In this document: one piece after another, positions 41,845 through 64,000 of the stretch
How the letters are laid out: the number at the start of each line of letters is the position of its first letter
Position numbering within the stretch: position 1 is the first letter of the stretch
Assembly: GCA_033856455.1 (NCBI GenBank)
Contig: JAWVEZ010000106.1
Coordinates: forward strand, 4,687-68,686
Origin: Solirubrobacterales bacterium
GTDB taxonomy: Bacteria; Actinomycetota; Thermoleophilia; Solirubrobacterales; 70-9
Direction: 5' to 3'
Length of the DNA stretch: 64,000 nt
Notes under the pieces: model-generated
What the model saw: the letters and a program-made list of their open reading frames with translations, nothing else
The model's database searches: none
Told to the model about the DNA's origin: nothing
Position numbers and translations under genes: made by a program

Positions 41845-41865
41845 CATTCATTCGCGAATGAATGT
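41844..41865. promoter_or_regulatory. perfect 22-bp AT-rich palindrome ACATTCATTCG|CGAATGAATGT abutting the TetR start codon
   Basis: Occupies the whole gap between the SDR stop (TAA, 41842-41844) and the TetR ATG (41866). Confidence 0.55.
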
Positions 41866-42495: not shown

Positions 42496-42503
42496 GGAGA
42501 GAG

Positions 42504-44990: not shown

Positions 44991-45020
44991 AGGTCATCCT
45001 AGACAAAACCAAGCTAGAAA

Positions 45021-45665: not shown

Positions 45666-45666
45666 C

Positions 45667-46272: not shown

Positions 46273-46365
46273 CAGACCTCCTCGGCAGCTGGATTGGCAC
46301 CTGGCCTCGATCGTCGGAGCGCCTCCCGTAACGGTGGCAACGCTACCACTGTCCGTATCCCTTGC

Positions 46366-47723: not shown

Positions 47724-47897
47724 AAGGGCCGATGGTAGCGCCTAGCCAGCCAAACAGTTTGAGAAGGGCTAGGCACCGTGCTGTTCTAGGAAAGAATATG
47801 GTTTCGCAAGGCGGCGGGAGACGCCCCGGCAACCCAACCAGAGCGAGCTCGATGCGGAATCGAATTCTTTCCGAGGCGGAACTATGGCTTTGCCCAA
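47724..47897. promoter_or_regulatory. divergent intergenic (promoter) region between the minus-strand and plus-strand TetR-like sub-arrays
   Basis: Locally AT-richer. 9-bp inverted arms ggaaagaat (47789-47797) and attctttcc (47864-47872). No confident -35/-10 assignment. Confidence 0.35.
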
Positions 47898-47933
47898 TTG
47901 GGCGGGTCCGCGACCGGCAGCTATCCTGCGCCG

Positions 47934-48587: not shown

Positions 48588-48609
48588 CTCTCTCAGGCGG
48601 CCGGCGCCG

Positions 48610-49236
48610 GTGAGCCGGCCCTGGCCCGGGGGTCGGATCGAGCCGGCCGAGGAGCGACGAAGGCTGCTCGTCGCCTTCGTCGAGCTCGTCGCCGAGGGTG
48701 GCATCGACGCGGCCGATCGCGGCTCGGTCTGTGCCCGTGCCGGCCTCGGGCGACGCGCCTTCGAACGCCACTTCGTGGATCGTCCCACCTGCTTCGACGC
48801 CGCCTGGGACTGGCTCAAGCTCGAGTACCTGGGACGGCTCGAGGCGGCGCTCGCCCCTCACGAGGGTTGGCGCCAGCGGCTGCGAGCGGGCGCGGGGGAG
48901 ACGCTGCGATTGGTCGGGGAGCATCCCCAGCAGGCGCGCTTCCTGGCGGTCGAGTCGCTTGCCCTCGAAGCCGGTCGTTCCCGCCAGCGGGCGCTGGGGG
49001 ATCGCATAGCCCAGCGGCTGGACGGCTTCCGCGCCGAGCTCGTGGATCCGAGCGGGCCACCCGCGGCGACCTCCAGCTGGGTCGTCGGCCTCTTCTTCGA
49101 CCGCATCTACCGGTGCCTCTCGGCCGGCGAAGAGCAGGCCCTTCCCGCGCAGCTGCCGCAGTTGCTGTTCCTCGCGGTCAGCGCGTACTCGGGGACAGAG
49201 GCGGGCCTCGAGGAGCTGCGCGCGCCCCCGCCCTAG
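48610..49236 (+). CDS. TetR-like regulator paralog T7 (most divergent HTH)
   Basis: RRRLLVAFVELVAEGGIDAADRGSVCARAGLGRRAFERHFVDRPTCF. GTG start. Confidence 0.6.
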   Translation: MSRPWPGGRIEPAEERRRLLVAFVELVAEGGIDAADRGSVCARAGLGRRAFERHFVDRPTCFDAAWDWLKLEYLGRLEAALAPHEGWRQRLRAGAGETLRLVGEHPQQARFLAVESLALEAGRSRQRALGDRIAQRLDGFRAELVDPSGPPAATSSWVVGLFFDRIYRCLSAGEEQALPAQLPQLLFLAVSAYSGTEAGLEELRAPPP

Positions 49237-49264
49237 CCGCACACAGTTCTAGAATGCTTTTCCA

Positions 49265-49963
49265 GTGTTGAGCAAGCCGCCAGGGGATAGTCCAGACCAT
49301 CCGGACGAGTTGGCCCAGCTCCCCCACGGCCGTCACGGCCTGCCGCAGGAGTTCGTCGAGCACAACCAGCGCGAACGCCTGATCGCGGCCTTCACCGAAC
49401 TGGTCGGCGAGGTCGGCTACAACGAGGTGACGATCAGCGCCACCACCGCCGGCGCCGCCGTCTCCAGCCGCACCTTCTACACCTTCTTCGCGACGATCGA
49501 GGAGTGCTTCCTCGGCGCCTTCGAGGTCGCCCTCGAGCGCCTCGGGCCGCCGCTGCTCGAAGCCTTCGAGTCCGAGGACGAGTGGCCGCGCGGGGTCCGA
49601 GCCGGCCTGGCGCAGGGGCTCTCCCTGCTCTCCTCCGACCCCGCCACAGCTCGTCTGCTCACCGCCGAGCCCTTCGTCGCCGGCTCCGCCGTCGCCGAGC
49701 GTTACAAAACCGCGCTGGAAGCGGTCACCCCCTACCTGCGCGCCGGGCGCAAGCTGCGCGCGCCGGGCGCTCCCGAGCTCCCGGAGAGCACCGAGCGCGG
49801 CCTGCTGGGGGCGATCAACGGGCTCGTCGCCCGCAAGGTCAACGCGGGCGGCGCCAGCGATCTGCTTGACCTCCTGCCCGACCTTACCCAGTTCGTCCTC
49901 ACGCCTTACCTCGGTGCCGCGGCCGCCCGCGAGCTCGCCACCGAAACCATGGCTCATCCTTGA
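49265..49963 (+). CDS. TetR-like regulator paralog T8
   Basis: QRERLIAAFTELVGEVGYNEVTISATTAGAAVSSRTFYTFFATIEECF. GTG start. Confidence 0.7.
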   Translation: MLSKPPGDSPDHPDELAQLPHGRHGLPQEFVEHNQRERLIAAFTELVGEVGYNEVTISATTAGAAVSSRTFYTFFATIEECFLGAFEVALERLGPPLLEAFESEDEWPRGVRAGLAQGLSLLSSDPATARLLTAEPFVAGSAVAERYKTALEAVTPYLRAGRKLRAPGAPELPESTERGLLGAINGLVARKVNAGGASDLLDLLPDLTQFVLTPYLGAAAARELATETMAHP

Positions 49964-49993
49964 CAAGTACGCGTCCTCTCATGTACGGTACCG

Positions 49994-50017
49994 GCGTCTT
50001 CTCGGGATAGAAGACGC
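49994..50017. promoter_or_regulatory. 9-bp inverted repeat gcgtcttct-cgggat-agaagacgc between T8 and the secreted-protein operon
   Basis: Lies 31 nt after the T8 stop and 78 nt before the TTG start at 50095. No U-tract follows, so it could be either a terminator or an operator. Confidence 0.35.
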
Positions 50018-50094
50018 GCAGGGGGCCTGCCAGGGGCAGTCCCGCACCGAAGCAGGGGCCACCAGGGGGCCTCCGGGACAAGGAGAGACGTACG

Positions 50095-53000
50095 TTGAGA
50101 AGCCACGCGAGGGTTCTTCTGGCAGTCGCAGCTCTGGCGGCTCTTGCTGCCCTAACCGCCATCCCCACTGCCGCGATCGCGGGCCCGCCGACGATCTCGC
50201 CTGACCCCGTCGCCGACCCGGCGATCAGCAAAGCCCACCTCACCGGCACCGTGACGATCGACGGCGAAGGGGACGGCGGCTCCCTCACCTGGGTCATGTT
50301 CCAGTACTGCCGCCCCCAGAGCCCCGGCGAATGCACCGAGACGACGGGCTCCTGGGAACTCGGTCCTGAACAGTTCACCAAACAGTTCCCGGCCGGGACC
50401 AGCGCCGAAGCCCACGAGGAAGACCTCACCGGGCTGAAAGCCAACACCGAATACGTGGTCCGCATGATCGCCTACCCCGAAGCCGGCGGGGAATTCTTCT
50501 CGCCCGAAGGCGGCTACCAGGCCTTCACCACCGACCCGGCGCCGACCGCCCCGGTGCCGACCCTCACGACGGCGACCCCCGGCTACGTCTCGATCCACCT
50601 CGAGGGCTCCGTCGATCCCGAAGGCGGCAACGACAACGGCGGCGAGCCGCTGCCGATCCACTGGGCCTTCGAGGTCTCCACCAGCGGCGACCCCGGGACC
50701 TGGTCTGCCAACGGCGCCGAAGGCGACATCACCGGCGCCGAAGCCGGCGAAAGCAACCCGATCGCGATCTCCAGCGACCTCGGCAGCCTCGCGCCCGGGA
50801 CCACCTACTTCTACCGCCTTCGCGTCACCTACGGCGGCCTCGAGGTAATCGAGGGCGGCGGCTCGTCGGTCGAAACCTCGCCGGTCGCCAAACCGGCGAT
50901 CGTGTTCGACCCGGTCTCAGCGATCACCGGCGACAGCGCCCACCTCTCCGGCGAAGTCGACCCGGGGGGCTCAGACCCCGCCTTCACGACCAACTGCCGC
51001 TTCGAGTACATCCGCGACATCGACTACCAACCGCGCAACGAGGTGCGGCAGGTGAAACTGCTGGGCAGCAGCGGGACCCGCGTCTGGTACTACAGGAACG
51101 GAGCGGAACAGACCCCGCCGCTCCCCTACAACGTCTCCGCGCCCGTCCTGCAGGCGGCGCTCGAGGCGCTTCCCGAAATCGGAACGGGCAACATCTCGGT
51201 CAGCGGAGGGCCGGGAGACGCGACCGGCTCGACCCCCTACATCTTCACCTTCACCGGCGCTTTCGCGGGCACCGACATGTGGCAGTCCATCACCGTGGAC
51301 AGCCCCTCGACCGACACCACCCTGGTCGAGGGCTACCCCGGCGGGTATGACTACGGGACCCCCATCCCCTGCGACCCGGCAACGCTCGAAGGCTCAGGCA
51401 GCCAGGAGGTCGAGGCCGACCTCGCGGACCTCCAGCCGAACACGCTCTATCACGTGCGCTTGGTCGCCAACAATGCCGCCGGCGCCTCGATCGAGCAGAG
51501 CACCTTCACCACCGCCGCGGTGCCGCCCACCGTGGCCGCGGCCACGGTGGGCGCCGTGAGTGACACCGCCGCCCGCCTCACCGCAAGCGTCGACGCCAAC
51601 AACTCCCCGACCGACGTCAGCTTCGAATACGCGACTGAGGCGGACTTCTCCGACGCCCTCACCGCCCCGAGCGGCGAGGGGACCGAGCTCTCGGGCAACG
51701 GTGAGCTCGCTTTCGCCGACCTCACCGGCCTCGAGCCCGACACCGAGTACTTCTGGCGGGTCGGCGCCGAGAACCCTGAGGGCACCGACGCCGACGTCGC
51801 CGAGGTGCCCTTCAAGACCTGGCCGGCAGCCGGCCCCGATCAGGGTGGGGTCGGCGTAGAAGGCCGGCGCCAGATCGAGCTGATCAGCGACCCGAAGGCG
51901 TCGAACGCCGTCAACCGGGCGGCGCTGTCTGCCTCCGGCGACCGCGTCCTCTACACCGTGCTTGCAGGCTCGGACCAGGCCAGCTACAGCGACCAAGGGG
52001 AAATGCTCGCCGATCGCACCGCGACTGGTTGGAAGATCCGCAACGCGCTTCCGCCCGCCAGCGCCTTTCAGCAGGACAACGCCAAGATCCAAGGCTACTC
52101 GGCGGACTTCACCCGGTTTGCCGTCAGAGCAACGTCTCACTTCCCAGCGTCAGGCCCCGGAACGGTCGACACCGGGCTGTGGGAACCCGACACCGGCAAA
52201 CTCACGCGCTGGGCCTCGGGGACGCCTCAGGACGCAAACGCCAGCTCCACGATGATCTTCCCGGAGAGTGGAAACCGGCTGCTGTGGGACTTCGAAGCCA
52301 CCTCGGGCGATCAAATGTTGCTCTATGAACTCGCCGGCGAGAATCCGGTCGAGGTCAGCCTGCTGCCGGATGAAAGCTCCCCTCCCTGCGGAGTCGGGAG
52401 TATTGCCTTCGGACACATCATCACCAACAACGCAATCGGGACGCAGAACTGGATCTCCGAAGACGGCGAACGGTTCGTCTTCCAGACTCCCACGGGCAAC
52501 GACTGCGGCGCCCCGCAACAGCTCTACATGCGCGAAGGAGGCGTCGACGGCACAACGATCCGGATCTCCCCGCCAGCGGTGGCGGGGCCCGAGCAGGGGG
52601 CTAAGTTCATCCAGGCGACGCCGGACATGTCGGTGATCTTCTTCTTGACGGCGGCCCGGATTGACCCAGTCGACCTCAACCAGACCAACGACCTCTACCG
52701 CTACACGGTCGGAGGCGCCGCCGAGTGCGTCACCTGCGTGGTTCCGCAGGCAGACATCAACTCGAATATCCACCCCGCCAGCGAAAGCACGCTCGCGGTG
52801 TCAGAAAACGGCGAGCGCGCCTACTTCGCCTCCGAACGTGTATTGGCGCCGGCGGCGGCGGGAGTGAATGGCCTCAAGGTGTATGTGTGGAGGGACGAAT
52901 CGCCCGATTCAATCGGCTACGTAGCGCCGTTTCCTGGCTCGTGGTCATTTAAGACGACGTCGTCTTCCTTTTCCTCCGCGACGACGCCGAACGGACGGGT

Positions 53001-53745
53001 TCTCCTCTTTCACTCCAGCTTGAAAAGCATGGATCAGCTCACCGCGAGCACCAATGGCGGAGTTGAGCAGGCGTACCGCTACGATGACCGCAGCCGCAGC
53101 CTCACCTGTCTCTCCTGCCCGTCAGCCACTGGGCTCGCAGTCGGGATGAGGACTGCCATCGGATCGCCAGCCCTCTTCTCGCTTGCTCGCGGCTCGACGC
53201 TCACTCCGGCCGGAGACACCTACTTCTTCGAGACCAAGCAGGCATTGGTCGACGAGGACCTCAACAACAACAGGGAGGACCTCTACGAGTGGCGGCGCGG
53301 CCAGCTCGCCCTGATTACCCGCGGCGCGGCCTTTTCCGCGCCCGTGCAGTTCAACGAGGAAGTCGCTCCCTTCGCGACGACCGCGGATGCGGGAACGGTC
53401 CTGTTCAAGTCTGTGGAGAATCAGGTCTCCGGCCTGGCCCCCCGCTCGAGCAGGCTCTACGTCGCCCGCGTCGGCGGCGGCTTCCCGACCGTCACCCCGC
53501 CGACCCCCTGCACGGGGGAAGGCTGCCGCTCGGCGCCCACCCCGAAACCGGCCGACAGCGGCCCGATCACGCCCAACTTCTCGGGCCCCGGCAACACCAA
53601 GACGCAGCCGAAGTGCCCCAAGGGCAAGGTCAGAAAGAACGGCCGCTGCGTGAAGAAGAAGGGGAAGGGGTCCGGCAAGCAGGGCTCCAAGTCCAAGGGC
53701 AAGTCCAAGAACCGAATCAACCGCAGCCTGGAGGGTGGCAAATGA
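50095..53745 (+). CDS. 1216-aa secreted protein P1: FN3-like repeats, PD40/TolB-like propeller-type region, Cys motif and polybasic tail
   Basis: TTG start 7 nt after aaggagag. Signal peptide MRSHARVLLAVAALAALAALTAIPTAAIA. FN3-like ends TGLKANTEYVVRM, LAPGTTYFYRLRV, LQPNTLYHVRLVA and LEPDTEYFWRV. DLNNNREDLYEW is a PD40-like turn. The protein ends ...VGGGFP..PCTGEGC...KCPKGKVRKNGRCVKKKGKGSGKQGSKSKGKSK. Confidence 0.8.
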   Translation: MRSHARVLLAVAALAALAALTAIPTAAIAGPPTISPDPVADPAISKAHLTGTVTIDGEGDGGSLTWVMFQYCRPQSPGECTETTGSWELGPEQFTKQFPAGTSAEAHEEDLTGLKANTEYVVRMIAYPEAGGEFFSPEGGYQAFTTDPAPTAPVPTLTTATPGYVSIHLEGSVDPEGGNDNGGEPLPIHWAFEVSTSGDPGTWSANGAEGDITGAEAGESNPIAISSDLGSLAPGTTYFYRLRVTYGGLEVIEGGGSSVETSPVAKPAIVFDPVSAITGDSAHLSGEVDPGGSDPAFTTNCRFEYIRDIDYQPRNEVRQVKLLGSSGTRVWYYRNGAEQTPPLPYNVSAPVLQAALEALPEIGTGNISVSGGPGDATGSTPYIFTFTGAFAGTDMWQSITVDSPSTDTTLVEGYPGGYDYGTPIPCDPATLEGSGSQEVEADLADLQPNTLYHVRLVANNAAGASIEQSTFTTAAVPPTVAAATVGAVSDTAARLTASVDANNSPTDVSFEYATEADFSDALTAPSGEGTELSGNGELAFADLTGLEPDTEYFWRVGAENPEGTDADVAEVPFKTWPAAGPDQGGVGVEGRRQIELISDPKASNAVNRAALSASGDRVLYTVLAGSDQASYSDQGEMLADRTATGWKIRNALPPASAFQQDNAKIQGYSADFTRFAVRATSHFPASGPGTVDTGLWEPDTGKLTRWASGTPQDANASSTMIFPESGNRLLWDFEATSGDQMLLYELAGENPVEVSLLPDESSPPCGVGSIAFGHIITNNAIGTQNWISEDGERFVFQTPTGNDCGAPQQLYMREGGVDGTTIRISPPAVAGPEQGAKFIQATPDMSVIFFLTAARIDPVDLNQTNDLYRYTVGGAAECVTCVVPQADINSNIHPASESTLAVSENGERAYFASERVLAPAAAGVNGLKVYVWRDESPDSIGYVAPFPGSWSFKTTSSSFSSATTPNGRVLLFHSSLKSMDQLTASTNGGVEQAYRYDDRSRSLTCLSCPSATGLAVGMRTAIGSPALFSLARGSTLTPAGDTYFFETKQALVDEDLNNNREDLYEWRRGQLALITRGAAFSAPVQFNEEVAPFATTADAGTVLFKSVENQVSGLAPRSSRLYVARVGGGFPTVTPPTPCTGEGCRSAPTPKPADSGPITPNFSGPGNTKTQPKCPKGKVRKNGRCVKKKGKGSGKQGSKSKGKSKNRINRSLEGGK

Positions 53746-56700
53746 ACTCCGTCGCTAAAGCCCTACAGCGTCCGCTACTCGTCTTGGCGCTGGCGCTTGG
53801 CATCGGTGCAAGCACCGCCGCAAGCGCATCTGCCGACGTGATCTGGGACATCCAGGCCACCCACGGCCCGACCGTGATGCAGCCCGGCGAGAAGGCCGAA
53901 TTCGTCTTCTTCGTCCACAACCTCGGCGACGAAGCGGCCGACGAGGTGACGATGCAGATCGAGCTGCCGCCGGGGGCGACCACGCGGATGAAGCCGAAGG
54001 TCGAATACTACGTTCCCGAAGGCCCCGAATCGAGCTGGTTCGCAAGTGGTGAAGGCTCCACCTGGGAGTGCGGCACCCCCGCCGCGGGGCAGTCCAGCCT
54101 CACCTGCACGGCCCCGAACATCCTGCCGGTCAGAGCCGGCGCCCCGCATCTCGGCCGCCTGGCCGTGTGGGTCGACATCCCGCCGAGCGCCACCGGCACC
54201 CTGGAGGCGACGGCCACCGTGACCGGCGGCGGCGCCCAGGCGGTCCACGTCGAGCGCGCGCAGGTCGGCCCGGCCCCGGACCGCTTCGGCATCGACCCGG
54301 CGTCGTTCAAAGCCGACGCCTTCGACGCCGACGGGCAGCCCGCCCGTCAGGCGGGGTCCCGGCCCTTCCGCGCGCACTCGACCTTCAGCTTCTTGCAGCG
54401 CAACGTTGCCTCTCGTTTCGGCAGCGTGCTCGACCACTCGAAGCCGTTCGGGAATCCGCGCGACGTCGAAGTGCGGCTGCCGCGCGGTTTCGTCGGCAAC
54501 CCGCAGGTCGTGGTCACGTGCACCCCGTTCGGACTGGATGTCTACGGAGGGGCGTACTGCCCGGCGGAGAGCCAGGTCGGCAACGCCGAGGTGATGATCG
54601 GGTCCGCGTTCTACGCGGAAGGAGCGTCCGACGCGCTCTTCCCGTCGGACATCCAGCCCGTCTACAACATGCCTACCCCGAAGGGAGTGCTGGCGCGCTT
54701 CGCCTTCGCCCTCGCCGGCCGCCCCACCTACATCGACGCGGTGCTCGACCCGACCGACTACTCGGTCATCGCCCAGGTGAAGAACATCCCCTCGACCGTC
54801 CCGGTCTACTTTCAGCAGCTGAACCTCTGGGGCGTGCCCGGGGACCCGGTCCACGACAGCGAGCGCTACAGCCCCGAGACCCGGTGGGGCTCGCCCTTCA
54901 ACCTTCCGGTTAAGCCCTTCCTCTCGCTGCCGACCGAGTGCAACGTCGCCGACACGACCGACCTGGTGACGCTGACCTCCTATGCGAACCGGGAGACCAA
55001 CGTCGCCGAAGGCCTGAAATCCGAGCCCGCGACCCTGCACGGCTGCGACCAGCTCGACTTCGACCCGACGGTCGAGGTCAAACCCTCGACCAACGTCGCC
55101 GACGCCCCTGCCGGCCTGGAATTCGACCTCCACATCCCCCAGAACGAAGACCCCGAGGGTCGCGCCACCGCGCACCTCAAAGACGCCGTGGTCACGCTGC
55201 CGGCGGGCATGACCGTCAACCCGCCGTCGGCCGACGGCCTCGGCGCCTGCTCGCTGGAGCAGATCGGGTTGGGGACCAACGACCCGGTCGCCTGCCCGGA
55301 GAGCTCCAAGCTCGGCACCGTTGAAGCTTCCTCGCCCCCGGTCGACCATCCGCTTCCCGGATCGGTCTACCTGGCCGAGCAGAACCGCAACCCGTTCAAC
55401 TCCCTGATCGCGATGTACCTGGTGATCGAGGACCCGGAGACCGGCCTGCTGGTAAAGCTCCCCGGCCGCGCGGACCTCGACCCCACCACGGGTCAGATCA
55501 CCGCCACCTTCAAGAACAACCCCCAGCTGCCGGTCGAAGACCTGGCGCTGAAGTTCTTCGAGGGACCGAGGGCCGCCCTGAAGACCCCCACGACCTGCGG
55601 CAACCACACCACCCAGGCCACCTTCACCCCATGGTCATCGCCCGAAGGAGCCGACGCCACCGAGCAGAGCACCTTCAGCCTCACCCAGGGCCCGGCCGGA
55701 GGCGCCTGCCTGCCGGCGGGAGCCCAGGCCCCCAACGCCCCGGCCTTCAGCGCCGGCACCGCCGACCCCACCGCGAAGGCCTACACCCCGTTCAGCCTCA
55801 AACTGACCCGGGCCGACGGCACCCAGCAGCTGCAGGGCATCGACACCCTGCTGCCCGAAGGGCTGACCGGCAAGCTCGCCGGCATCCCCTACTGCTCGGA
55901 GGCCTCCCTGGCCGCCGCCCAGGCCAAGCAGGGCAAAGCCGAGCAGGCCGTCCCGAGCTGTCCCCTCGCCAGCAAGGTCGGCATCGTCAACGTCGGCGCC
56001 GGAGCGGGCAGCACCCCGCTCTACGTCCAGGGCCAGGCCTACCTCGCCGGCCCCTACAAAGGCGCCCCGCTCAGCCTGGCGATCGTCACCCCGGCGGTGG
56101 CGGGCCCCTTCGACCTCGGCACCGTCGTGGTCAGGACCGCGCTCCACGTCGACCCGGCGACCGCTCAGATCCACGCGGTGAGCGACCCCTTCCCGCGGAT
56201 CCTCGAGGGGGTCCCGCTGAACATCCGCTCGATCGCCCTGCGGATGGACCGGCCCGATTTCACCCTCAACCCGACCAGCTGCGACCCGATGGCGATCACC
56301 GGCTCGGCGCTCTCGGTCTTCAACCAGCTCACGCCACTCTCCGAGCGCTTCCAGGTGGGTGAGTGCAGCAAGCTGAAGTTCAAGCCGAAGCTGAGCTTGC
56401 GCCTCAAGGGCAAGACCAAGCGCACCGGGCACCCGGCGCTGACCGCGGTGCTGACCCAGCCGCAGGGCGGCCAGGCCAACATCGACCGCGTCTCGGTCGT
56501 CCTGCCGCGCGCCCAGTTCATCGACCAGGGCCGGATCGGCGAAGTCTGCACGCGCGATCAGTTCGCGGCCAGGGCCTGCCCGGCGAAGTCGATCCTCGGC
56601 ACGGCGACCGCCTACACGCCGCTGCTCGACCGGCCCCTGACGGGGACCGTCTACCTGCGCGCCAACGGCGGCGCGCGCGAACTGCCCGACATGGTCGCCG

Positions 56701-57014
56701 CCCTGCGCGGGCAGATCAACGTCGACCTGGTCGGCTACGTCGACGCGGTGGTCACGCCCGGCACCGAAATATCTCGGATCCGCAACACCTTCGCGATCGT
56801 CCCCGACGCGCCGGTGAGCAAATTCGTCCTGAGGCTGAACGCGGGCAAAAAAGCCCTGCTTGAAAACAGCCGCAACCTTTGCAAATCCACCCAGGAGGCG
56901 ACCGTCAGGATGCTCGGCCAGAACGGCAAGGCCTACGACTTCTCGCCGTCGGTGGAGAACGACTGCGCGAAGAAGCCGAAGAACGGCAAGGGCGGCAAAG
57001 GCAAACGGGGCTGA
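53742..57014 (+). CDS. 1090-aa secreted Cys-paired multidomain protein P2 (paralog of P4) with polybasic tail
   Basis: ATGA overlap with P1. Signal peptide MNSVAKALQRPLLVLALALGIGASTAASASA. N-terminal DUF11/CARDB-like segment GEKAEFVFFVHNLGDEAADEVTMQIELPPG. Collinear with P4. Ends CAKKPKNGKGGKGKRG. Confidence 0.8.
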   Translation: MNSVAKALQRPLLVLALALGIGASTAASASADVIWDIQATHGPTVMQPGEKAEFVFFVHNLGDEAADEVTMQIELPPGATTRMKPKVEYYVPEGPESSWFASGEGSTWECGTPAAGQSSLTCTAPNILPVRAGAPHLGRLAVWVDIPPSATGTLEATATVTGGGAQAVHVERAQVGPAPDRFGIDPASFKADAFDADGQPARQAGSRPFRAHSTFSFLQRNVASRFGSVLDHSKPFGNPRDVEVRLPRGFVGNPQVVVTCTPFGLDVYGGAYCPAESQVGNAEVMIGSAFYAEGASDALFPSDIQPVYNMPTPKGVLARFAFALAGRPTYIDAVLDPTDYSVIAQVKNIPSTVPVYFQQLNLWGVPGDPVHDSERYSPETRWGSPFNLPVKPFLSLPTECNVADTTDLVTLTSYANRETNVAEGLKSEPATLHGCDQLDFDPTVEVKPSTNVADAPAGLEFDLHIPQNEDPEGRATAHLKDAVVTLPAGMTVNPPSADGLGACSLEQIGLGTNDPVACPESSKLGTVEASSPPVDHPLPGSVYLAEQNRNPFNSLIAMYLVIEDPETGLLVKLPGRADLDPTTGQITATFKNNPQLPVEDLALKFFEGPRAALKTPTTCGNHTTQATFTPWSSPEGADATEQSTFSLTQGPAGGACLPAGAQAPNAPAFSAGTADPTAKAYTPFSLKLTRADGTQQLQGIDTLLPEGLTGKLAGIPYCSEASLAAAQAKQGKAEQAVPSCPLASKVGIVNVGAGAGSTPLYVQGQAYLAGPYKGAPLSLAIVTPAVAGPFDLGTVVVRTALHVDPATAQIHAVSDPFPRILEGVPLNIRSIALRMDRPDFTLNPTSCDPMAITGSALSVFNQLTPLSERFQVGECSKLKFKPKLSLRLKGKTKRTGHPALTAVLTQPQGGQANIDRVSVVLPRAQFIDQGRIGEVCTRDQFAARACPAKSILGTATAYTPLLDRPLTGTVYLRANGGARELPDMVAALRGQINVDLVGYVDAVVTPGTEISRIRNTFAIVPDAPVSKFVLRLNAGKKALLENSRNLCKSTQEATVRMLGQNGKAYDFSPSVENDCAKKPKNGKGGKGKRG

Positions 57015-57015
57015 G

Positions 57016-58902
57016 TTGAACCGACCGGGCCAGCTCGCCGGAGCGCTTGCCGCGGCGGCGAGCGCGCTGGCGCTGGCGGCATCGCCGGCATTCGGCCTTT
57101 CGGCCGACCGCGGCTGGGAGATGGTCAGCCCGGTCGACAAGAACGGCGGCAGCATCGAGGGGCCGGAAGCGAACCTCGGCGGCGGCGTCTTCCAGGCCGC
57201 CGCGCAGGGCGGCGCCGTCACCTACACCTCCGGGGCCTCGTTCGCCGCGCCCCAGGGCTCGCCCGGCCCCAACCAGTACCTCGCCCTCCGCACGGGCGAG
57301 GGCTGGAGCACCGAGAACGTCACCCTGCCGCTCTACTCCGGCTCCTACCCAAACGGGTCCGACCCGGGGGTTCCCTACCAGCTCTTCTCCTCTGACCTGG
57401 CAACCGGCCTGGTCACCAACGGCAAACGCTGTCGCGCCACCGGCAGCGCCTGTCCGGTCGCCAACCCGCCACTGCCGGGCTCGGGCGCGCCGGCGGGCTA
57501 TCGGAACTACTACCTGCGCGCCAACGCAACCGGTGCCGCGCAGGCACTCTTGACCACCGCTGGGATCGCCGGGCTCGGTCTCGGACCCGACGAGTTCGAG
57601 GTCGCGGTCGCGGGCGCCACCTCCGACCTCGGCCAGGTCGTGCTCTCGAGCTGCGCGGCGATCACCGCGAACGCGACCGAGGTGCCGGGGGTCGGGGGCG
57701 AATGCGACCCCGAAGAGCAGAACCTCTACCGCTGGGCGGGCGGCACCCTCTCCCTGGTCAACCTGATGCCGGGAGAGGGCGAGGGCACGCCGGGCGCCGA
57801 GCTCGCCGCGGCGAGCGGGGCGATCGCGAACGACGGAAGCCGGGTCTACTGGAGCGACGGCGACGCCCTCTACCTGCGCGAAGGCGGCCAGAGCTTCGCG
57901 GTCGACGGGACGATCGGCGGCGGCGCGGGCTTCGAGGGCGCGGCCGCCGACGGCTCGCTCGCCTACCTGACCAAAGGCGGGCATCTCTACCGCTACGACG
58001 CCGTGACCAAGGCGCTGACCGATCTCACTCCTTCGGGCGGGGTAGAGGGCGTGCTCGGAAGCTCAGCCACCGGCACCCGCGTCTACTACCTGGACGCCAC
58101 CGGCCTCATCCTCCGTGACGGCGCGGTGACGACCAAAGTCGCCGACGCCGCCGACGCCGCCAACTATCCGCCGGCCACGGGCACGGCCCGGGTCAGCGCC
58201 GACGGCAGCCGCCTCGCGTTCGTCGCCTCCGAGCAGATCGGCGCGTTCGACAACGACGGGAGGGCGGAGGTCTACCTCTTCTCGGTCGCCGGACCGACGC
58301 TCACCTGCGCCTCCTGCAACTCGACCGGTAAACCCCCGCTGGGCCCCGCCTCGATGCCGGGTGCGATCCGCAACGGCACGGCGATCCAGACCTACAAGCC
58401 ACGCAACCTCGTCGCCGGCGGCAGCCGCCTCTACTTCGACACCTTCGACGCGCTGGTGCCGCAGGACACCAACAAAGATCGCGACGTCTACCAGTGGGAG
58501 GCGGGGGGCACCGGGACCTGCGTCAAACCAGGCGGCTGCGTCAGCCTGATCTCCAGCGGCCGCTCCGAAGACGGCGCCCGCTTCGTTGACGCCTCGGCCG
58601 ACGGCACGGACGTCTTCTTCACCACCGACGGCTCGCTGGTGCCGGGCGACTCGGGCGCGGTCGACCTCTACGACGCCAGGGTGGGAGGGGGCTTCCCGCT
58701 GCCCCCGGTAGTGATCCCCTGCAACGGCGACGCCTGCCAGCCGCTGCCGCCCGAACCCGAAGACCCGACGCCCGGGACGCTGCTGAGCAAGCCGCAGGGC
58801 AATCCGCCGCTCACCTTCCCGAAGGAACGACGCAAGAAGAAGCCCGGCAAGAAGAAGCCCGGCAAGAAGGGCAAGGGGAAGCAGCGCGGGGGTCGACGGT
58901 GA
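57016..58902 (+). CDS. 628-aa secreted PD40/TolB-like propeller-type protein P3 (paralog of the P1 C-terminal half) with polybasic tail
   Basis: TTG at 57016 (1 nt after the P2 stop) gives the signal peptide NRPGQLAGALAAAASALALAASPAFG. VSADGSRLAFVASE, DTNKDRDVYQWE, SADGTDVFFTT. Ends VGGGFP..PCNGDAC..KERRKKKPGKKKPGKKGKGKQRGGRR. The start codon choice is uncertain. Confidence 0.7.
   Translation: MNRPGQLAGALAAAASALALAASPAFGLSADRGWEMVSPVDKNGGSIEGPEANLGGGVFQAAAQGGAVTYTSGASFAAPQGSPGPNQYLALRTGEGWSTENVTLPLYSGSYPNGSDPGVPYQLFSSDLATGLVTNGKRCRATGSACPVANPPLPGSGAPAGYRNYYLRANATGAAQALLTTAGIAGLGLGPDEFEVAVAGATSDLGQVVLSSCAAITANATEVPGVGGECDPEEQNLYRWAGGTLSLVNLMPGEGEGTPGAELAAASGAIANDGSRVYWSDGDALYLREGGQSFAVDGTIGGGAGFEGAAADGSLAYLTKGGHLYRYDAVTKALTDLTPSGGVEGVLGSSATGTRVYYLDATGLILRDGAVTTKVADAADAANYPPATGTARVSADGSRLAFVASEQIGAFDNDGRAEVYLFSVAGPTLTCASCNSTGKPPLGPASMPGAIRNGTAIQTYKPRNLVAGGSRLYFDTFDALVPQDTNKDRDVYQWEAGGTGTCVKPGGCVSLISSGRSEDGARFVDASADGTDVFFTTDGSLVPGDSGAVDLYDARVGGGFPLPPVVIPCNGDACQPLPPEPEDPTPGTLLSKPQGNPPLTFPKERRKKKPGKKKPGKKGKGKQRGGRR
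58834..58863 (+). repeat. perfect 15-bp tandem duplication aagaagaagcccggc x2 (KKKPG KKKPG) inside the P3 tail
   Basis: Copies at 58834-58848 and 58849-58863, followed by a partial third copy aagaagggcaagggg. Confidence 0.8.
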
Positions 58903-61838
58903 GGCGCGCTCAAGCCTCGGCTAGCAGTTGCTCGCACCAGGCGAGCGCGCAACCGGTCAAGGATCGAGGGCCCTGGGCTGGGATGCTGGCCTCGCTTGCC
59001 ATCGCCTCGCTCGCAATGGCCGTGCTCGCGATTTCTCCCGCCGCCGCCGGGGCGGCGTTCGGCTTCCTGCCGGGGTCCGCGGGCTTCCAGGCGGTTCCGA
59101 GCGTCGAGGGCGGCGAACGGGCGGAGCTCGCCGGATCGCACCCGTTCGCGCTGACCACGGAGGTGAACTTCAAGCTCGCGCCCGAATCGCCGTCGGAGCC
59201 AGGCGTGCAGTTCACCGACGGCGACCTGCGGGACCTGACGATCGACCTGCCGCCGGGCCTGATCGAAAACCCGAGCGTGGTCCCCCGGTGCACTCCGGCG
59301 CAGTTCCAGGCTCCGCGGAGCTCCCCGTTCGAAGCGAGCCTCTCCGGCGAGAGCTGCCCGGACAAGACCCAGATCGGCACGATCGAGATCCGCTCCTCGT
59401 TCGAGGGCGGGACCGCCAGGACCTTCGGAGTCTTCAACCTGGAGCCGCCGCCGGGCTTCCCCTCGCGCTTCGGCGCCAGCCCGCACGGGACGCCGGTCGT
59501 GATCACCCCGCGGATCCGCGAAACCGGCTCCGAGTTCGGGCTCAGCCTCGAGCTGAGGAACTTCCCCCAGCGCTTCGACACCTACGGCTTCACGCTGAGG
59601 CTCTGGGGGACCCCGTGGAGCGTCGCCCACGACGGGCAGCGAGGTAACTGCCTGAACCAGCGGGAGCCGAGCTTCCCGAACGCCAAATGCTCGGTCGGCC
59701 AGCCGCGCTTCAATCTGCGCCAGGCGTATCTGACCCTGCCCTCCTCCTGTGACGGACCGCTGAGCTTCGGGGTCAGCGCGACGTCCTGGCAGCAGCCGGG
59801 GACGGTGCGGGCGGAGTCCGCGGGGCCGCCGCTGAGCGCCTGCGAGACGCTGCCCTTCGGCCCGGCGCCGCTCGCCCGCCTCAACACCGACCGCGCCGGC
59901 TCGCCCTCGGGCTTCGACTTCACCCTGCAGGGCGACACCGAGGGCCTCACGGAACCGGCGCAGCGGGCTGCCTCCCCCGTTAAGAAGGCGGTGGTGATGA
60001 TGCCGGCGGGGATCACGATCAATCCCTCGATCGGGGCGGGGCTCGGCACCTGCTCGCCGGCGCAGTTCGCGGCCGAGACGCTCACCTCAGCGCCGGGGGC
60101 GGGGTGTCCGAACGCTGCCAAGATCGGCGAGCTGACGGTCAAAAGCCCGCTCTTCGAAGGCGAAGTCAAAGGCGGCCTCTTCCTCGCCCAACCCGACGAC
60201 CCCGACAGTCCCGGGCCCGAGAACCCCTTCGACTCGATGATCGCGCTCTATCTCGTCGCCAAGTCGCCTGAGCGCGGGGTGATGGTGCGGCTGGCCGGGA
60301 AGACCGTCGCCGACCCGGCCAGCGGCCAGCTCACCACCACCTTCGACGGCCTCCCGCAACTGCCCTACACCACCTTCAACGTCAACTTCCGCGACGGCCA
60401 GCGCACCCCCCTCGCCACCCCGGCTACCTGCGGCCACTACGCGACCGAGATCCGGCTCAGCCCCTGGCTGGAGCCGGCCGAGGTCGCGACCTACAGCACC
60501 CCGTTCGAGCTCGACGCCGGGATCGGCGGGGGGCCCTGTCCGGCCGGCACGCCGCCGTTTCACCCGGGAGCCGTCAACGGCACGATCAACCGCGCCGCCG
60601 GTGCCTACACCTCTTTCTACATGCGCCTCTCGCGAACCGACGCCGAGCAGGAGATCACCTCCTACTCGGCGCTCTTCCCGCCGGGCCTGCTCGGCAGGCT
60701 GAAAGGCGTTCCCTACTGCCCGGAGGCGGCGATCGAGACGGCGAAACGAAACACCGGCATCGCCGAGCGGCGCGACCCGTCCTGCCCGGCCGCCTCGCTG
60801 ATCGGGCGCACCCACTCGGGCTACGGCCTCAGCTCGGTGCTCGCCTACGCGCCCGGCAACCTCTACCTCGCGGGACCCTACGGCGGCTCGCCCTTCTCGA
60901 TCGTCGCGATCAACGCCGCCCTCGTCGGTCCCTTCGACCTGGGCGTCGTCACGGTCCGCTCGGCGATCCGGATCGACCGCCGCACCGCCCAGGTCTCGGT
61001 CGACTCCTCCGACTCGGACCCGATCCCCCACATCCTCGACGGCATTCCGCTGCACCTGCGCGACGTGCGGGTCTATCTCGACCGCCCGAACTTCATGCTC
61101 AACCCGACCTCCTGCGACCCGTTCGCGGCGGTCTCGTCGATGAACGGATCCGGTGCCGATTTCGCCTCGAGCGCCGACGACGTCACCGTCGCGGTGCCGA
61201 GCCTCTTCCAGGTCTCGAGCTGCTCGGACCTCCAGTTCAAGCCGCGGATGCGGTTCACGCTCCGAGGCGGAAATCGGCGCGGGCAGTACCCGAAGCTGCA
61301 GGCGGTGGTGCGGCCACGGCCAGGGAACGCCAACATCGGCTACGCCTCGGTGCTGCTGCCCCCGAGCCTGTTCCTCGCCCAGGAGCACATCGACACGATC
61401 TGCACCCGGCGCCAGTTCGAGCTCGCGAACTGCCCGCCCGGCTCCCGTTACGGCTACGCGAAAGCGGTGACGCCGCTGCTTGGTCAGCCGCTGCAGGGGC
61501 CGGTGTACCTGCGGGCATCCGACAACCTGCTCCCGGACCTCGTCGCCGACCTCTCCGGCGCGGGGGTGCGGATCGAGGTGGGGGGGAGGATCGACTCCGT
61601 CCGGGGCGGCATGCGCGCGACCTTCTCGGTCCTCCCCGACGCCCCGGTGACCAAGTTCACGATGAACCTGAGGGGCGGCAAGAAAGGACTGCTGGCGATC
61701 TCCGACAACCTCTGCAAGGTCGAGGCGGTCGTGAACTCGCGGATGGGCGGTCAGAACAACATCGGCACGATCGTGCGCTCGCCGATCGAGGTCGAATGCC
61801 CGAAGCAGGGTAACGGGGGACGGGGGGGACGGCGATGA
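58899..61838 (+). CDS. ~950-980-aa secreted Cys-paired multidomain protein P4 (paralog of P2) with short basic tail
   Basis: GTGA overlap with P3. The alternative ATG at 58983 gives the signal peptide MLASLAIASLAMAVLAISPAAAGA. Blocks shared with P2 include LPPGLIENPSVVPRCTP, LWGTPWSVAHD, MPAGITINPS, NPFDSMIALYLV, DRPNFMLNPTSCDP and GGKKGLLAISDNLC. Ends ECPKQGNGGRGGRR. Confidence 0.8.
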   Translation: MRRAQASASSCSHQASAQPVKDRGPWAGMLASLAIASLAMAVLAISPAAAGAAFGFLPGSAGFQAVPSVEGGERAELAGSHPFALTTEVNFKLAPESPSEPGVQFTDGDLRDLTIDLPPGLIENPSVVPRCTPAQFQAPRSSPFEASLSGESCPDKTQIGTIEIRSSFEGGTARTFGVFNLEPPPGFPSRFGASPHGTPVVITPRIRETGSEFGLSLELRNFPQRFDTYGFTLRLWGTPWSVAHDGQRGNCLNQREPSFPNAKCSVGQPRFNLRQAYLTLPSSCDGPLSFGVSATSWQQPGTVRAESAGPPLSACETLPFGPAPLARLNTDRAGSPSGFDFTLQGDTEGLTEPAQRAASPVKKAVVMMPAGITINPSIGAGLGTCSPAQFAAETLTSAPGAGCPNAAKIGELTVKSPLFEGEVKGGLFLAQPDDPDSPGPENPFDSMIALYLVAKSPERGVMVRLAGKTVADPASGQLTTTFDGLPQLPYTTFNVNFRDGQRTPLATPATCGHYATEIRLSPWLEPAEVATYSTPFELDAGIGGGPCPAGTPPFHPGAVNGTINRAAGAYTSFYMRLSRTDAEQEITSYSALFPPGLLGRLKGVPYCPEAAIETAKRNTGIAERRDPSCPAASLIGRTHSGYGLSSVLAYAPGNLYLAGPYGGSPFSIVAINAALVGPFDLGVVTVRSAIRIDRRTAQVSVDSSDSDPIPHILDGIPLHLRDVRVYLDRPNFMLNPTSCDPFAAVSSMNGSGADFASSADDVTVAVPSLFQVSSCSDLQFKPRMRFTLRGGNRRGQYPKLQAVVRPRPGNANIGYASVLLPPSLFLAQEHIDTICTRRQFELANCPPGSRYGYAKAVTPLLGQPLQGPVYLRASDNLLPDLVADLSGAGVRIEVGGRIDSVRGGMRATFSVLPDAPVTKFTMNLRGGKKGLLAISDNLCKVEAVVNSRMGGQNNIGTIVRSPIEVECPKQGNGGRGGRR

Positions 61839-63793
61839 GGTCGAGGGCATTGCGCGTTTGCGTCGGCGCCCTCGCGGCGATGGCGATGGCCTGGGCCCCG
61901 GCAGTCACTCAGGCCGCGCCCTACCCGTTTCTGAAAGTGGCCGCGACGGGTACGCCCGGGAGCTCGGTCAGCCAACCCTTCGACGACGCCTGCGGGCTCG
62001 CCGTCGATGAGAGCGCACGCCTCTTCGTCTCGGACTACCACCACGGCCTCGTCGCAAGGTTCGGGACCGAACTGTTCCCCCCTCCTCCGTCGGAACCCGA
62101 GCTCGTCGTTCCCTATCAGTCCAAATTCGTCTCGACGGAACAGGAAAACTCCCCCTGTGCGATCGCCGCCGACTCCTCCGGAGACGTCTTCGCGGCCAAC
62201 TTCCACCAGGGCGTGGTCCGCTACCCGGCCGCCGGCGCTCCGCAGGCGATCGCGCCCGGCCACGCCACCGGTCTCGCCGTCGACAGGGCCACCGGCACTC
62301 TCTACGTCACCTACCGTGACCACGTCGCCGCCTACAGCGCGCCGGTCACCCCCCTGAGTGTGCCCATCTCGATTGGCCTGGGCTCCCTCGGCGACGCCTA
62401 TGGCGCCGCCGTCTCCGGCTTCGCCGCCACCGCGGGCTATCTCTACGTCGCCGACGCCACCGATGACACCGTCAAGGTCTTCGACCCCGCCGCCGACCCG
62501 GTCAACCCAGTGGCCACGATCGACGGCGCCGCGACGCCCCCGGGCGAGTTCCGTGAGCTCGCCGATGCGAGCCTGGCGGTCGACGACAACAGCGGCGACA
62601 TCTTCGTTCTCGACAATCTCCAGCCCGGATTCGAGCACCCGGCCGCGGCGGTCTACGGTTTCAGGTCGAACGGCGGGTACCTCGGCCGATTGCCCAAAGG
62701 AATCGTCCACGGTGGCCCGTCGGGGTTGGCGATCGACAACTCCGCCGCCGACACCCGGGGCCTGATCTACGTCACCTCGGGCAACGAGATCGTGCTCAAC
62801 CCGAGCACGCAGCAGGACGAGGGCTCGCAGGTCTACGCCTTCTGTCCGAGGATCCCGGCTTCGGTCGCCCTCGCGCTCGCCTGTCCCGATCCGACTCCAG
62901 CCCTGCCGCTCGAGGTGATCCGCGCCGGGAATGGCGCAGGTTCCGTGACTGGCACCGGTGCCCAGATCCAGTGCGGCGTGCTCTGCGCGACCGAAGCGGA
63001 CCAGGGGGCGATCGTGACCCTGGTCGCCACCCCGAAACCGCACTCGGCCTTCTCTGGCTGGACGGTGACGGGGGGCAGCTCCAGTTGTGGGACGGCGCCG
63101 ATCTGCAAACTGACGCTCAGCTCCGCGGCGCAGGTCACCGCAACCTTTGCCGCGATTCCGCAGCGGCAGCTGACGGTGACGACGACCGGCTCCGGCTCCC
63201 TGACCAGCTCCCCGGTCGGGCTCGACTGTGGAGCCACCTGCGTCGCCGGGTTCGACCAGGGCACCGTCGTCACGCTTCATCCCGAACCGGGGCCGGGAGC
63301 GGAATTCACCGGCTGGTCCGGTGCGTGCGGTGGCACCGGCGTCTGCAAAGTCGCCCTCTCAGCCGACGCCAGCGTCGGGGCCTTCTTCAAGCCGATCGAG
63401 CGCGTCGCCCCGATCCCTCCCGGAGAGAGCCTGCGGGTCCTCGCGATCTCGGTCGGCGGAGAAGGCGCCGGCACGATCACCTCCGACCCGGCGGGGATCG
63501 AGTGTGGTACCCCTTGCTCGGTTGCCTACCCGCCGGGCCAGACCGTCACTCTGAGCGCCACCCCTAACCCGGAATCGCGGTTCGTGGGCTGGTCGGGCTG
63601 CGATCTGGTCGCGGCCGGCCGCTGCACCGTGACGCTTGCCACCTCTCGAACTGTCGGTGCCGCCTTCGCCGAGGCGAAGCCAAGGAAGACGAAGCCGTGT
63701 CGCAAGAAGCAGAGCGGCAAGAACCGCAAGGGGTCGAAGTGCAAGGGCGCCAGGAACGGGAAGGCAGCCGGGAAGGGCAGGGGACGGCGATGA
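61835..63793 (+). CDS. 652-aa secreted protein P5: NHL-type propeller-like region, three Cys-containing InlB-B-repeat-like modules and polybasic tail
   Basis: ATGA overlap with P4. Signal peptide MRSRALRVCVGALAAMAMAWAPAVTQA. Blade-like motifs GLAVDRATGTLYVT, YLYVADATDDTVKVFD, LAVDDNSGDIFVLD and GLAIDNSAADTRGLIYVT. Ends KPRKTKPCRKKQSGKNRKGSKCKGARNGKAAGKGRGRR. Confidence 0.8.
   Translation: MRSRALRVCVGALAAMAMAWAPAVTQAAPYPFLKVAATGTPGSSVSQPFDDACGLAVDESARLFVSDYHHGLVARFGTELFPPPPSEPELVVPYQSKFVSTEQENSPCAIAADSSGDVFAANFHQGVVRYPAAGAPQAIAPGHATGLAVDRATGTLYVTYRDHVAAYSAPVTPLSVPISIGLGSLGDAYGAAVSGFAATAGYLYVADATDDTVKVFDPAADPVNPVATIDGAATPPGEFRELADASLAVDDNSGDIFVLDNLQPGFEHPAAAVYGFRSNGGYLGRLPKGIVHGGPSGLAIDNSAADTRGLIYVTSGNEIVLNPSTQQDEGSQVYAFCPRIPASVALALACPDPTPALPLEVIRAGNGAGSVTGTGAQIQCGVLCATEADQGAIVTLVATPKPHSAFSGWTVTGGSSSCGTAPICKLTLSSAAQVTATFAAIPQRQLTVTTTGSGSLTSSPVGLDCGATCVAGFDQGTVVTLHPEPGPGAEFTGWSGACGGTGVCKVALSADASVGAFFKPIERVAPIPPGESLRVLAISVGGEGAGTITSDPAGIECGTPCSVAYPPGQTVTLSATPNPESRFVGWSGCDLVAAGRCTVTLATSRTVGAAFAEAKPRKTKPCRKKQSGKNRKGSKCKGARNGKAAGKGRGRR
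62903..63670 (+). repeat. three ~75-85-aa protein-level repeats (G-x-G-x-V/I-T-S-x-P-x-G-I/L-x-CG-x-x-C ... F-x-GW-S/T-G-x-C ... C-x-V/L-x-L ... F)
   Basis: By-eye alignment of P5 residues ~357-440, 445-518 and 533-612. The pattern matches my recollection of the divergent InlB B-repeat family. Confidence 0.6.
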
Positions 63794-64000
63794 GGCGCCT
63801 GGCCACCACCGGGTGCCTGCTCGTCTTCGCACTCGCGGCGCTCGCCCAGGCCGAGATAGTCCAGCGCGGCAACTTGCGGATCGCCGTCGACGGCCAGATC
63901 TCCCCGGAGAGGCTGCCGCGCGAGGGCTCGGCCCCGGTGCGGGTCTCGGTCTTCGCCGAGATCGCCTCGACCAAGAAGGGGACGAGCCCGCCGCAGCTGC
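63790..64000 (+). CDS. 3'-truncated secreted protein P6
   Basis: ATGA overlap with P5. I translate MRRLATTGCLLVFALAALAQAEIVQRGNLRIAVDGQISPERLPREGSAPVRVSVFAEIASTKKGTSPPQL. The frame is open to the window end, so it is absent from the ORF track. Confidence 0.65.
   Translation, partial: MRRLATTGCLLVFALAALAQAEIVQRGNLRIAVDGQISPERLPREGSAPVRVSVFAEIASTKKGTSPPQL

Follow-up and report, generated by a model that had tools for sequence, protein, structure and literature searches.

A 64,000-nt stretch of DNA from a Solirubrobacterales bacterium (assembly GCA_033856455.1, contig JAWVEZ010000106.1; the whole stretch is referred to as the window) was analysed, and positions 50095-64000 were read as six tightly packed open reading frames (ORFs), P1 to P6, all on the plus strand. 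As judged from the sequence, they belong to an operon that is a tandem pair of two-gene modules (P1-P2 and P3-P4) followed by P5, P6, and a seventh gene, P7, found on a nearly identical contig. In each module, a gene for a propeller protein of the PD40/TolB type is followed by a gene for a Cys-rich all-beta protein of approximately 900 aa; the tandem duplication of this widespread unit had been missed in the original prediction for this DNA. Neither the P2/P4 family nor the module has a described member in the libraries and literature searched. The products P1 to P5 all end in polybasic tails, which are conserved in the module families, and no known type of surface anchor was detected in them by the searches described below. 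We suggest that the tails may tether the proteins to anionic envelope components electrostatically and without a covalent link, a reading that fits the observations best and to which we nevertheless give somewhat less than an even chance.

P1 (50095-53745, 1216 aa) starts with TTG, with AAGGAGAG located 8 nt 5′ of the start; P2 (53742-57014, 1090 aa) starts with ATG, P3 (57016-58902, 628 aa) with TTG, and P5 (61835-63793, 652 aa) with ATG, as does P6, of which an N-terminus of 70 aa (63790-64000) lies before the window end. P4 occupies 58899-61838 and has 979 aa if read from GTG 58899, or 951 aa from ATG 58983. The window had a guanine-plus-cytosine (GC) content of approximately 70% throughout, and third-codon-position GC was 0.81-0.88 in the frames of all six genes, as expected of real genes at this composition; the six consecutive plus-strand genes that had been proposed from 50095 onwards were thus confirmed. 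The NCBI protein MDX6623436.1, from a metagenome-assembled genome (MAG) named 'MAG Solirubrobacterales bacterium', was 100% identical to P3 over its 628 aa.

The sequence contained ATGA overlaps at 53742, 61835, and 63790 and a 1-nt gap at 57015, as had been predicted. At the P3/P4 junction the proposed 4-nt GTGA overlap (58899) is present, but it depends on an uncertain start codon, a point missed earlier: two independent gene callers placed the start of P4 at ATG 58983, which leaves a gap of 80 nt instead. One gene caller moved the start of P5 15 codons downstream of 61835; because this later start removes the charged n-region, 61835 is the more plausible one. The upstream starts of both P4 and P5 give better signal-peptide n-regions, and P4 from ATG 58983 would have an uncharged one. 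Co-transcription of the cluster is plausible. A scan of 47500-64000 spoke neither for nor against it; no sigma-70-like promoter was found there, and the terminator-like hairpins were no more numerous than expected by chance (12, compared with 8.4 ± 3.1), all of them being weak and intragenic.

The end of the operon was read from contig L081, which is 99.96% identical to window positions 54518-64000 and was reached via a sibling of P3 in its 90% cluster, an exact look-up of P5 in the assembly index having found nothing. The original prediction had the operon continuing beyond the window and pointed downstream of 64000 for export or assembly genes. What L081 added was the rest of P6 (254 aa in full) and the 166-aa gene P7, which overlaps P6 by 4 nt; neither product has a polybasic tail. 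The operon is therefore read as seven genes, the products of which would all be exported by the Sec pathway and the last two of which are tailless. P6, P7, and the genes behind them lie at 9273-12556 of L081. P7 is separated by 400 nt from a gene for an extracytoplasmic function (ECF) sigma factor of 193 aa, after which a protein of 344 aa is encoded; the latter has a single predicted membrane segment and is a possible anti-sigma factor.

The tail of P1 (53605-53742, plus strand like all the others; QPKCPKGKVRKNGRCVKKKGKGSGKQGSKSKGKSKNRINRSLEGGK) is 46 aa long with 14 Lys and 4 Arg and includes a cationic Cys-x10-Cys loop. That of P2 (56967-57011; AKKPKNGKGGKGKRG) comprises 15 aa past the last Cys, with 6 Lys and 1 Arg. 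In P3, a Pro-rich linker and the tail together make up 45 aa (58765-58899; PTPGTLLSKPQGNPPLTFPKERRKKKPGKKKPGKKGKGKQRGGRR), and the tail proper, downstream of the Pro-rich spacer, has 27 aa with 11 Lys and 5 Arg. The tail of P4 (61800-61835; PKQGNGGRGGRR) has 12 aa past the last Cys, with 1 Lys, 3 Arg, and a net charge of +4, and that of P5 (63668-63790; AEAKPRKTKPCRKKQSGKNRKGSKCKGARNGKAAGKGRGRR) has 41 aa, with 11 Lys, 7 Arg, and a Cys-bracketed loop. Basic residues accounted for 33-59% of the tails, compared with 4-8.5% of the protein bodies. The bodies are acidic (isoelectric point 4.3-5.7, net charge -9 to -78), and the tails carry +8 to +19. Five basic Gly/Lys/Arg tails had been described in the original prediction, with Cys residues preceding or bracketing four of them (P1, P2, P4, and P5); the tails and the Cys residues are as quoted, and the lengths, given as 14 to about 45 residues, were measured as 12-46 aa.

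The ratio of Lys to Arg in the tails was approximately 43:20, whereas the other genes of the window encode 2.3% Lys and 6.6% Arg. Arg is rate-limiting in Sec transport, and Lys crosses SecY far more easily and can pass in deprotonated form (PMC9110029); a bias of Lys over Arg in an Arg-rich genome therefore fits tails that must pass SecYEG. In the AlphaFold2 (AF2) model of P3, the predicted local distance difference test score (pLDDT) was approximately 50 over residues 570-628, and hence the tail of P3 is predicted to be disordered. Tails of the same type occur on three unrelated folds (propeller, multi-immunoglobulin-like [multi-Ig], and NHL/InlB-repeat) and are lacking in P6 and P7. Because three folds share the tail and two small proteins of the same operon do not, it would seem to be a modular functional add-on tied to the system.

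Conservation was assessed in 79 loci of Solirubrobacterales/Conexibacteraceae MAGs, with a net charge of at least +6 over the last 25 aa as the criterion for a tail. This charge was reached by 93% of P1-class, 75% of P2-class, 87% of P3-class, and 84% of P4-class proteins, compared with 3% of the 698 other ORFs in these loci; P6-class proteins were never tailed. The possibility that such ends are a general trait of secreted proteins in the lineage was rejected, since only 5 of the 698 non-family ORFs reached +8, mostly Arg-rich doubtful ORFs. In the window itself, none of the 32 other genes had a comparable tail. Both products were tailed in 74% of 58 adjacent propeller/multi-Ig pairs, and neither in 7%. 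The check proposed earlier, whether orthologous operons keep the tails, thus had a positive outcome that extends over hundreds of homologues.

In nearly all of the 120 P2 homologues listed, a Cys and then a basic tail of differing length form the C-terminus. The segment past CxGDxC was compared in 114 P3 homologues; its medians were 61 aa for length, +15 for net charge (range, +7 to +24), 13 for Lys, and 5 for Arg. The Cys-x10-Cys loop, C-[KR]-K-[GN]-Q-[VF]-K-[KR]-x-G-[KR]-C-V-K-K, recurs within tails of proteins unrelated to one another; it was present in 50 of 120 P3 homologues (42%), at 53614-53649 of the window (P1), and in both the P1 and the P3 tails of another locus, L001. A subset of P2 homologues had a different conserved basic motif, C-x11-13-C-E-K-x-A-[RQ]-x-[KR]-Y-G-P. 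This motif and the Cys-x10-Cys loop look like mobile mini-modules.

Could the tails be functionless by-products, arising from downstream ribosome-binding sequences, from base composition, or from mistaken gene calls? In P1, P3, P4, and P5, the final 5-7 codons do overlap G-rich Shine-Dalgarno-like sequences (for example, GGAGGGTGG and GGGGGACGGGGGGGACGG), which favour Gly and Arg codons. The tails, however, extend to 27-46 residues, far past any ribosome-binding site, and use AT-rich Lys codons in a genome of 70% GC; they are in frame with high third-position GC and are conserved in hundreds of homologues from different sources. Moreover, 72% of the family members without a downstream family gene still reached +6 or more, so that a downstream ribosome-binding site does not explain the charge. 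The by-product explanation was thus largely refuted by this charge, by the conservation within classes, and by Lys-codon use, and we regard it as hardly credible.

At the other end of the proteins, signal peptides were judged by a heuristic that considered n-region charge, hydrophobic core, and cleavage motif. By this heuristic, P1 to P6 had n-region charges of +1 to +3, 12-residue cores with mean Kyte-Doolittle values of 2.1-2.9, and AxA-like small-residue sites 8-25 residues past the core, in line with the earlier claim that each of the six begins with a Sec-type signal peptide. The lipobox pattern [LVI][ASTVI][GAS]C was not found after the hydrophobic core in any of the six N-termini; the Cys residues of P5 (LRVC) and P6 (TTGC) lie ahead of the core and do not match it. 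A regular-expression search detected no C-terminal motif of the LPXTG type, the sole match being an internal LPGSG at residue 153 of P3. No C-terminal hydrophobic helix was found in the last 80 residues, where the best 17-aa Kyte-Doolittle means were -0.67 to 1.02. P1 to P4 had no NCBIfam match at all, signals of the PEP-CTERM, GlyGly-CTERM, PGF-CTERM, and related exosortase, rhombosortase, or archaeosortase types included, and the single NCBIfam match of P5 was to the NHL part of ScyF (25 bits, compared with a cut-off of 350). The three approaches agree with the original prediction that an LPXTG motif, a hydrophobic C-terminal helix, and a CTERM-like ending are all missing. In Pfam scans of P1 to P6, no SLH, CWB2, LysM, GW, WxL, or other wall-binding domain was detected.

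These results also bear on the suggestion, made in the original prediction, that the tail might be a new C-terminal sorting or processing signal, here together with the segment CxGDxCQxLPxEPEDPTPGT...GNPP or with the Cys loop and read by a dedicated enzyme. Conserved motifs do precede the tail in the propeller class, and similar tails stand on three unrelated folds within one operon, as C-terminal sorting signals do. To our knowledge, however, every known C-terminal sorting signal of such a type has a hydrophobic helix, and these proteins lack one. The basic part has neither a fixed length nor a cleavage motif, and around the 79 loci no recurrent family of sortases, peptidases, transpeptidases, or other candidate processing enzymes was seen. 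The suggestion found no support in the gene neighbourhoods, and we consider it very improbable.

Of the two module components, the propeller was modelled as P3. Its AF2 model (pLDDT 85.8; predicted template modelling score [pTM] 0.83) had tricorn, TolB, and S9-peptidase propellers as its top Foldseek matches, with a probability of 1.0 and template modelling (TM) scores of 0.2-0.34, and P3 is accordingly assigned, at the fold level and by its model, to the PD40/TolB-type beta-propellers. The model and the Foldseek search gave no catalytic domain. The Pfam match of P3 to PD40 was 15.8 bits, with a cut-off of 20.9, and a few homologues have a precomputed PF07676 match. A conserved motif, CxGDxCQxLP, precedes the linker and tail. 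In a word-filtered search, 1,525 homologues of P3 were scored at E <= 1e-3. P1 has a Sec-like leader, then FN3-like and purple-acid-phosphatase-N-like beta-sandwiches ahead of a propeller region of the PD40 type; over its last 200 aa it matches P3 with 30% identity. It has the motif GGGFP..PC.GEGC, and GGGFP...PC.G..C is common to P1 and P3.

P2 and P4, which are 37% identical over 940 aa (E = 8e-172), are paralogues. P2 consists of a Cys-rich all-beta core of approximately 900 aa and a weak DUF11-like N-terminal domain that is absent from P4; the match to DUF11 (PF01345) covers only the first ~120 residues and has 17.0 bits, with a cut-off of 24.6. Some P2 homologues have a precomputed PF01345 match and the JGI name 'TIGR01451 family'. 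For the P2/P4 core, Pfam gave nothing above cut-off and NCBIfam, PHROG, and PDB sequences gave no match, so that the two proteins of about 1000 aa which the original prediction could not recognise remain outside these libraries. Plant-virus coat proteins, the best PDB-chain match in the searches with P2, P4, P3, and P6, were dismissed as chance (E = 0.28). In an alignment of 95 members, 15 Cys residues were invariant, which fits folding outside the cytoplasm. In a search of 1.84 billion representative proteins, a profile of the family matched 18,370 clusters of 50% identity with E <= 1e-3, of which 6,059 reached E <= 1e-30; all the named members are 'hypothetical protein'.

Among the profile matches, giant proteins (P0241-P0250; 2,100-7,161 aa, from Actinomycetota MAGs where named) each contained 5-15 stretches matching the P2/P4 profile. 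Their best stretches cover most of the C-terminal ~650 profile positions, which would thus constitute a self-contained repeatable unit. The giants are mostly without a polybasic tail. Pfam, NCBIfam, and PHROG scans assigned no family to the giants, nor to P3, P6, or P7.

The structure of P4 was predicted confidently as almost all beta (AF2 model of 952 aa, pLDDT 91.3, pTM 0.84). Foldseek searches of PDB and BFVD, the check that had been recommended, returned generic multi-Ig matches only, with TM scores <= 0.19 and 6-11% identity: integrin alpha legs, Saf and CFA/I pilins, an S-layer protein of the archaeon Nitrosopumilus (8c8o), and complement MG domains. Homology to integrin, pilin, complement, or S-layer proteins was rejected at such scores, the domain class alone being shared. 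A phage structural identity of P2/P4 was likewise not indicated, there being no PHROG match and only generic Ig/FN3 repeats among the BFVD matches (TM <= 0.19).

Another possibility is that the tails dock on the acidic bodies of partner proteins and so build a fibre, sheath, or lattice. Parallels for docking of this kind are the arginine-rich arms in virus capsids and the charge-zipper contacts in some S-layers. The strong contrast in charge between bodies and tails, the conserved gene pairing with both partners tailed, the pTM of 0.84 for P4, which suggests a rigid building block, and the archaeal S-layer protein among its neighbours would all suit assembly. Yet the tails vary widely in sequence and in length (from 0 to more than 40 residues), which is unusual for a specific protein-protein interface; many paralogous pairs occur per genome, whereas S-layer genes are usually single and highly expressed; and the structural matches of P4 are generic, as stated. 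Tail-to-body assembly is for these reasons judged to be quite unlikely.

P5 comprises a Sec-like leader and, besides an NHL-type propeller, three divergent domains of the InlB B-repeat (Flg_new_2) kind. The match to PF18998 was clear (E = 3.4e-22; 78.6 bits, cut-off 23.6; 3 stretches), the NHL match was 19.1 with a cut-off of 20, and homologues bear both PF18998 and PF01436. The full-length P6 is a predicted secreted, Cys-containing protein that ends in ...SCKVR and is 48.6% identical to the P6 of L001; a P6-class gene stands behind a P4-type gene in approximately 20 loci. P7 is a predicted secreted, helix-rich protein.

The unit of a P1/P3-type gene followed by a P2/P4-type gene recurred in most of the 79 loci, sometimes doubled and often accompanied by a P6-type gene. 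Several module loci occur per genome, and chromosome OY970165.1 has four. In the syntenic locus L001, the gene order P1-P2-P3-P4-P5-P6 was identical to that of the window, and its P1 to P5 have basic tails. Literature searches on the envelopes and S-layers of Solirubrobacter and Conexibacter yielded nothing on the P2/P4 family or on wall chemistry, and those on polybasic or Lys-rich C-terminal tails of secreted proteins yielded no paper describing such tails as anchors. A large, entirely unannotated family and a conserved partner family, recurring together several times per genome, are hereby defined in the Solirubrobacterales, abundant soil Actinomycetota with an essentially unstudied cell surface.

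The Sec-like leaders, invariant Cys residues, acidic all-beta ectodomains, gene pairing, and conservation of the tails together point to a surface system without a known anchor. They are consistent with exported, disulfide-bonded, acidic ectodomains that would work in pairs at the surface, and they give partial support to the multi-component extracellular or cell-surface assembly put forward in the original prediction. None of the outcomes that the original prediction named as able to refute it was observed. We infer that the proteins are exported, kept at the surface, and joined in complexes, and that the tails have an anionic ligand. In detail, the tails would be exported along with the proteins and would then hold them non-covalently, by charge, on anionic envelope components, with wall glycopolymers or anionic lipid head groups as candidate ligands; the Pro-rich segment of the propeller class would serve as a spacer. 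Kept co-localised by their tails, which would replace sortase or lipid anchoring, the module partners would most likely act jointly outside the membrane as a cell-surface complex. Docking onto anionic wall polymers was one of the functions suggested for the tails in the original prediction, and electrostatic tethering is likewise our tentative preference.

Several observations weigh against tethering by the tails. The Sec leaders were judged by heuristic criteria only, and a complex of module partners is proposed from conserved gene adjacency. Approximately 7-25% of the family members have little or no tail, and hence the tail is not indispensable. The tail of P4 is the weakest, being short (12 aa) with a net charge of +4. 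In P5, the tail is kept only in the closest orthologues (P0391, P0392, P0396, and P0398), the remoter ones ending in a different domain instead. This restriction of the P5 tail to one clade, like the tailless state of P6 and P7, was missed in the original prediction.

The same cationic ends might instead be the business end of an adhesin, binding polyanions outside the cell (extracellular DNA, clay or silica, humics, acidic polysaccharides) and gluing cells to soil particles or a biofilm matrix; the proteins would then be either released or displayed. The K/S/G-rich composition of the P1 tail and its Cys-bracketed cationic loop are typical of polyanion-binding peptides, and the Lys-rich C-terminal domain of mycobacterial HBHA binds sulfated glycans (PMC3293801). 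A family of 18,370 clusters with several loci per genome in a soil lineage also has the diversity expected of adhesins that face the environment. An adhesive role, however, leaves nothing to hold the proteins on the cell, as no other anchor was found. The tail of the P3 class follows a Pro-rich spacer, like the wall-proximal ends of Gram-positive surface proteins, and the presence of tails on both module partners fits co-localisation better than ligand specificity. We therefore consider the adhesin explanation possible, though unlikely. Should DNA or polyanions of the soil prove to be what the tails bind, this family would rank as a major class of soil adhesins.

If electrostatic tethering is correct, surface display on a monoderm cell would be achieved by a short Lys-rich tail, without sortase, lipid, or a folded wall-binding domain. 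This would be a new entry among bacterial surface-display mechanisms, with a signature that annotation pipelines could recognise, and the tails would offer a natural test case for the selection of Lys over Arg in Sec-exported polycationic segments. A more far-reaching proposal, which we offer as a speculation and regard as doubtful, is that the tail represents a new kind of C-terminal retention module, one that is mobile, has been gained independently by at least three unrelated folds, and defines a lineage-specific, massively diversified surface machinery. The propeller and the rigid multi-Ig protein would then form a charge-tethered heterodimeric complex resembling a receptor or adhesin, perhaps linked to MMPL transporters through a shared small secreted protein.

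The neighbours that recurred at the 79 loci were TetR-like regulators, MMPL transporters, PucR-like regulators, and small secreted proteins. An MMPL transporter was near the module in 13 loci and in approximately 8 of them stood within ~140 nt behind a P2-type gene; in L005, L027, L031, and L036 this distance was 50-140 nt. A P7-family gene overlapped the end of the MMPL gene by 1-8 nt (-8, -4, or -1) in L005, L011, L013, L027, L031, and L036. This arrangement may mean that the module and export of the MMPL type are functionally linked. In the window, tblastn found neither an MMPL nor a PucR-like gene.

Of these neighbours, the TetR-like family recurred most often (72 genes in 34 of the 79 loci, up to 6 per locus). 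In the window, the interval 44754-49963 contains approximately 7 genes for TetR-like paralogues, four of them read from the minus strand and three from the plus strand, as identified by Pfam TetR_N and by 7 tblastn matches with the TetR of the neighbour family. The three plus-strand genes (47898-48587, 48610-49236, and 49265-49963) lie directly 5′ of P1. The TetR-like genes are probable regulators. The 130-nt leader between the last of them and P1 contains a 9-bp perfect inverted repeat on the plus strand (49994-50017; GCGTCTTCT-cgggat-AGAAGACGC), which is not followed by a T-run and might serve as a terminator or as an operator for TetR. The genes at 40294-44329, on the far side of the TetR array from P1, are ordinary metabolic ones; they encode two short-chain dehydrogenases, a further TetR, a luciferase-like monooxygenase, and an enoyl-CoA hydratase and are unrelated to the operon.

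Compared with known systems, P3 resembles the TolB/PD40, S9-peptidase, and tricorn propellers in its model and has a weak Pfam match to PD40. It differs from them in lacking a peptidase domain and the TolB N-terminal domain, in coming from a monoderm lineage, and in having the extra CxGDxC motif, the linker, and the polybasic tail. P4 is, like the multi-Ig surface proteins, a chain of beta-sandwich domains, but it has no propeller, thioester, or donor-strand features and shares no sequence family with them. With the LPXTG/sortase signal the proteins have in common a basic cluster at the very end and, in the P3 class, a Pro-rich spacer upstream that resembles a wall-spanning region; they have no LPXTG-type motif near the C-terminus, no hydrophobic helix, and no sortase in the gene neighbourhoods.

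The basic wall-binding regions of Lactobacillus S-layer proteins and the GW modules of InlB, which bind lipoteichoic acid, are folded domains or repeats of approximately 80-120 aa that belong to recognisable families. HBHA is not known to have a signal peptide; its body is a coiled coil, and the methylated KKAAPA-type repeats of its tail bind host heparan sulfate. The logic proposed here is like that of the S-layer and GW regions, in that a Sec-exported protein would be held non-covalently by a cationic C-terminal region, whereas the tail is short (12-46 aa), disordered, and variable and has no Pfam or NCBIfam match; this comparison draws on the literature, reviews included (PMC5817068, PMC3666127), not on homology. 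In HBHA, likewise a surface protein of actinobacteria, the Lys-rich repeats at the C-terminus are disordered and bind polyanions (PMC3293801, PMC8467707). HBHA has no sequence relationship with the proteins described here, in which the tails sit on putative Sec substrates with propeller or multi-Ig bodies.

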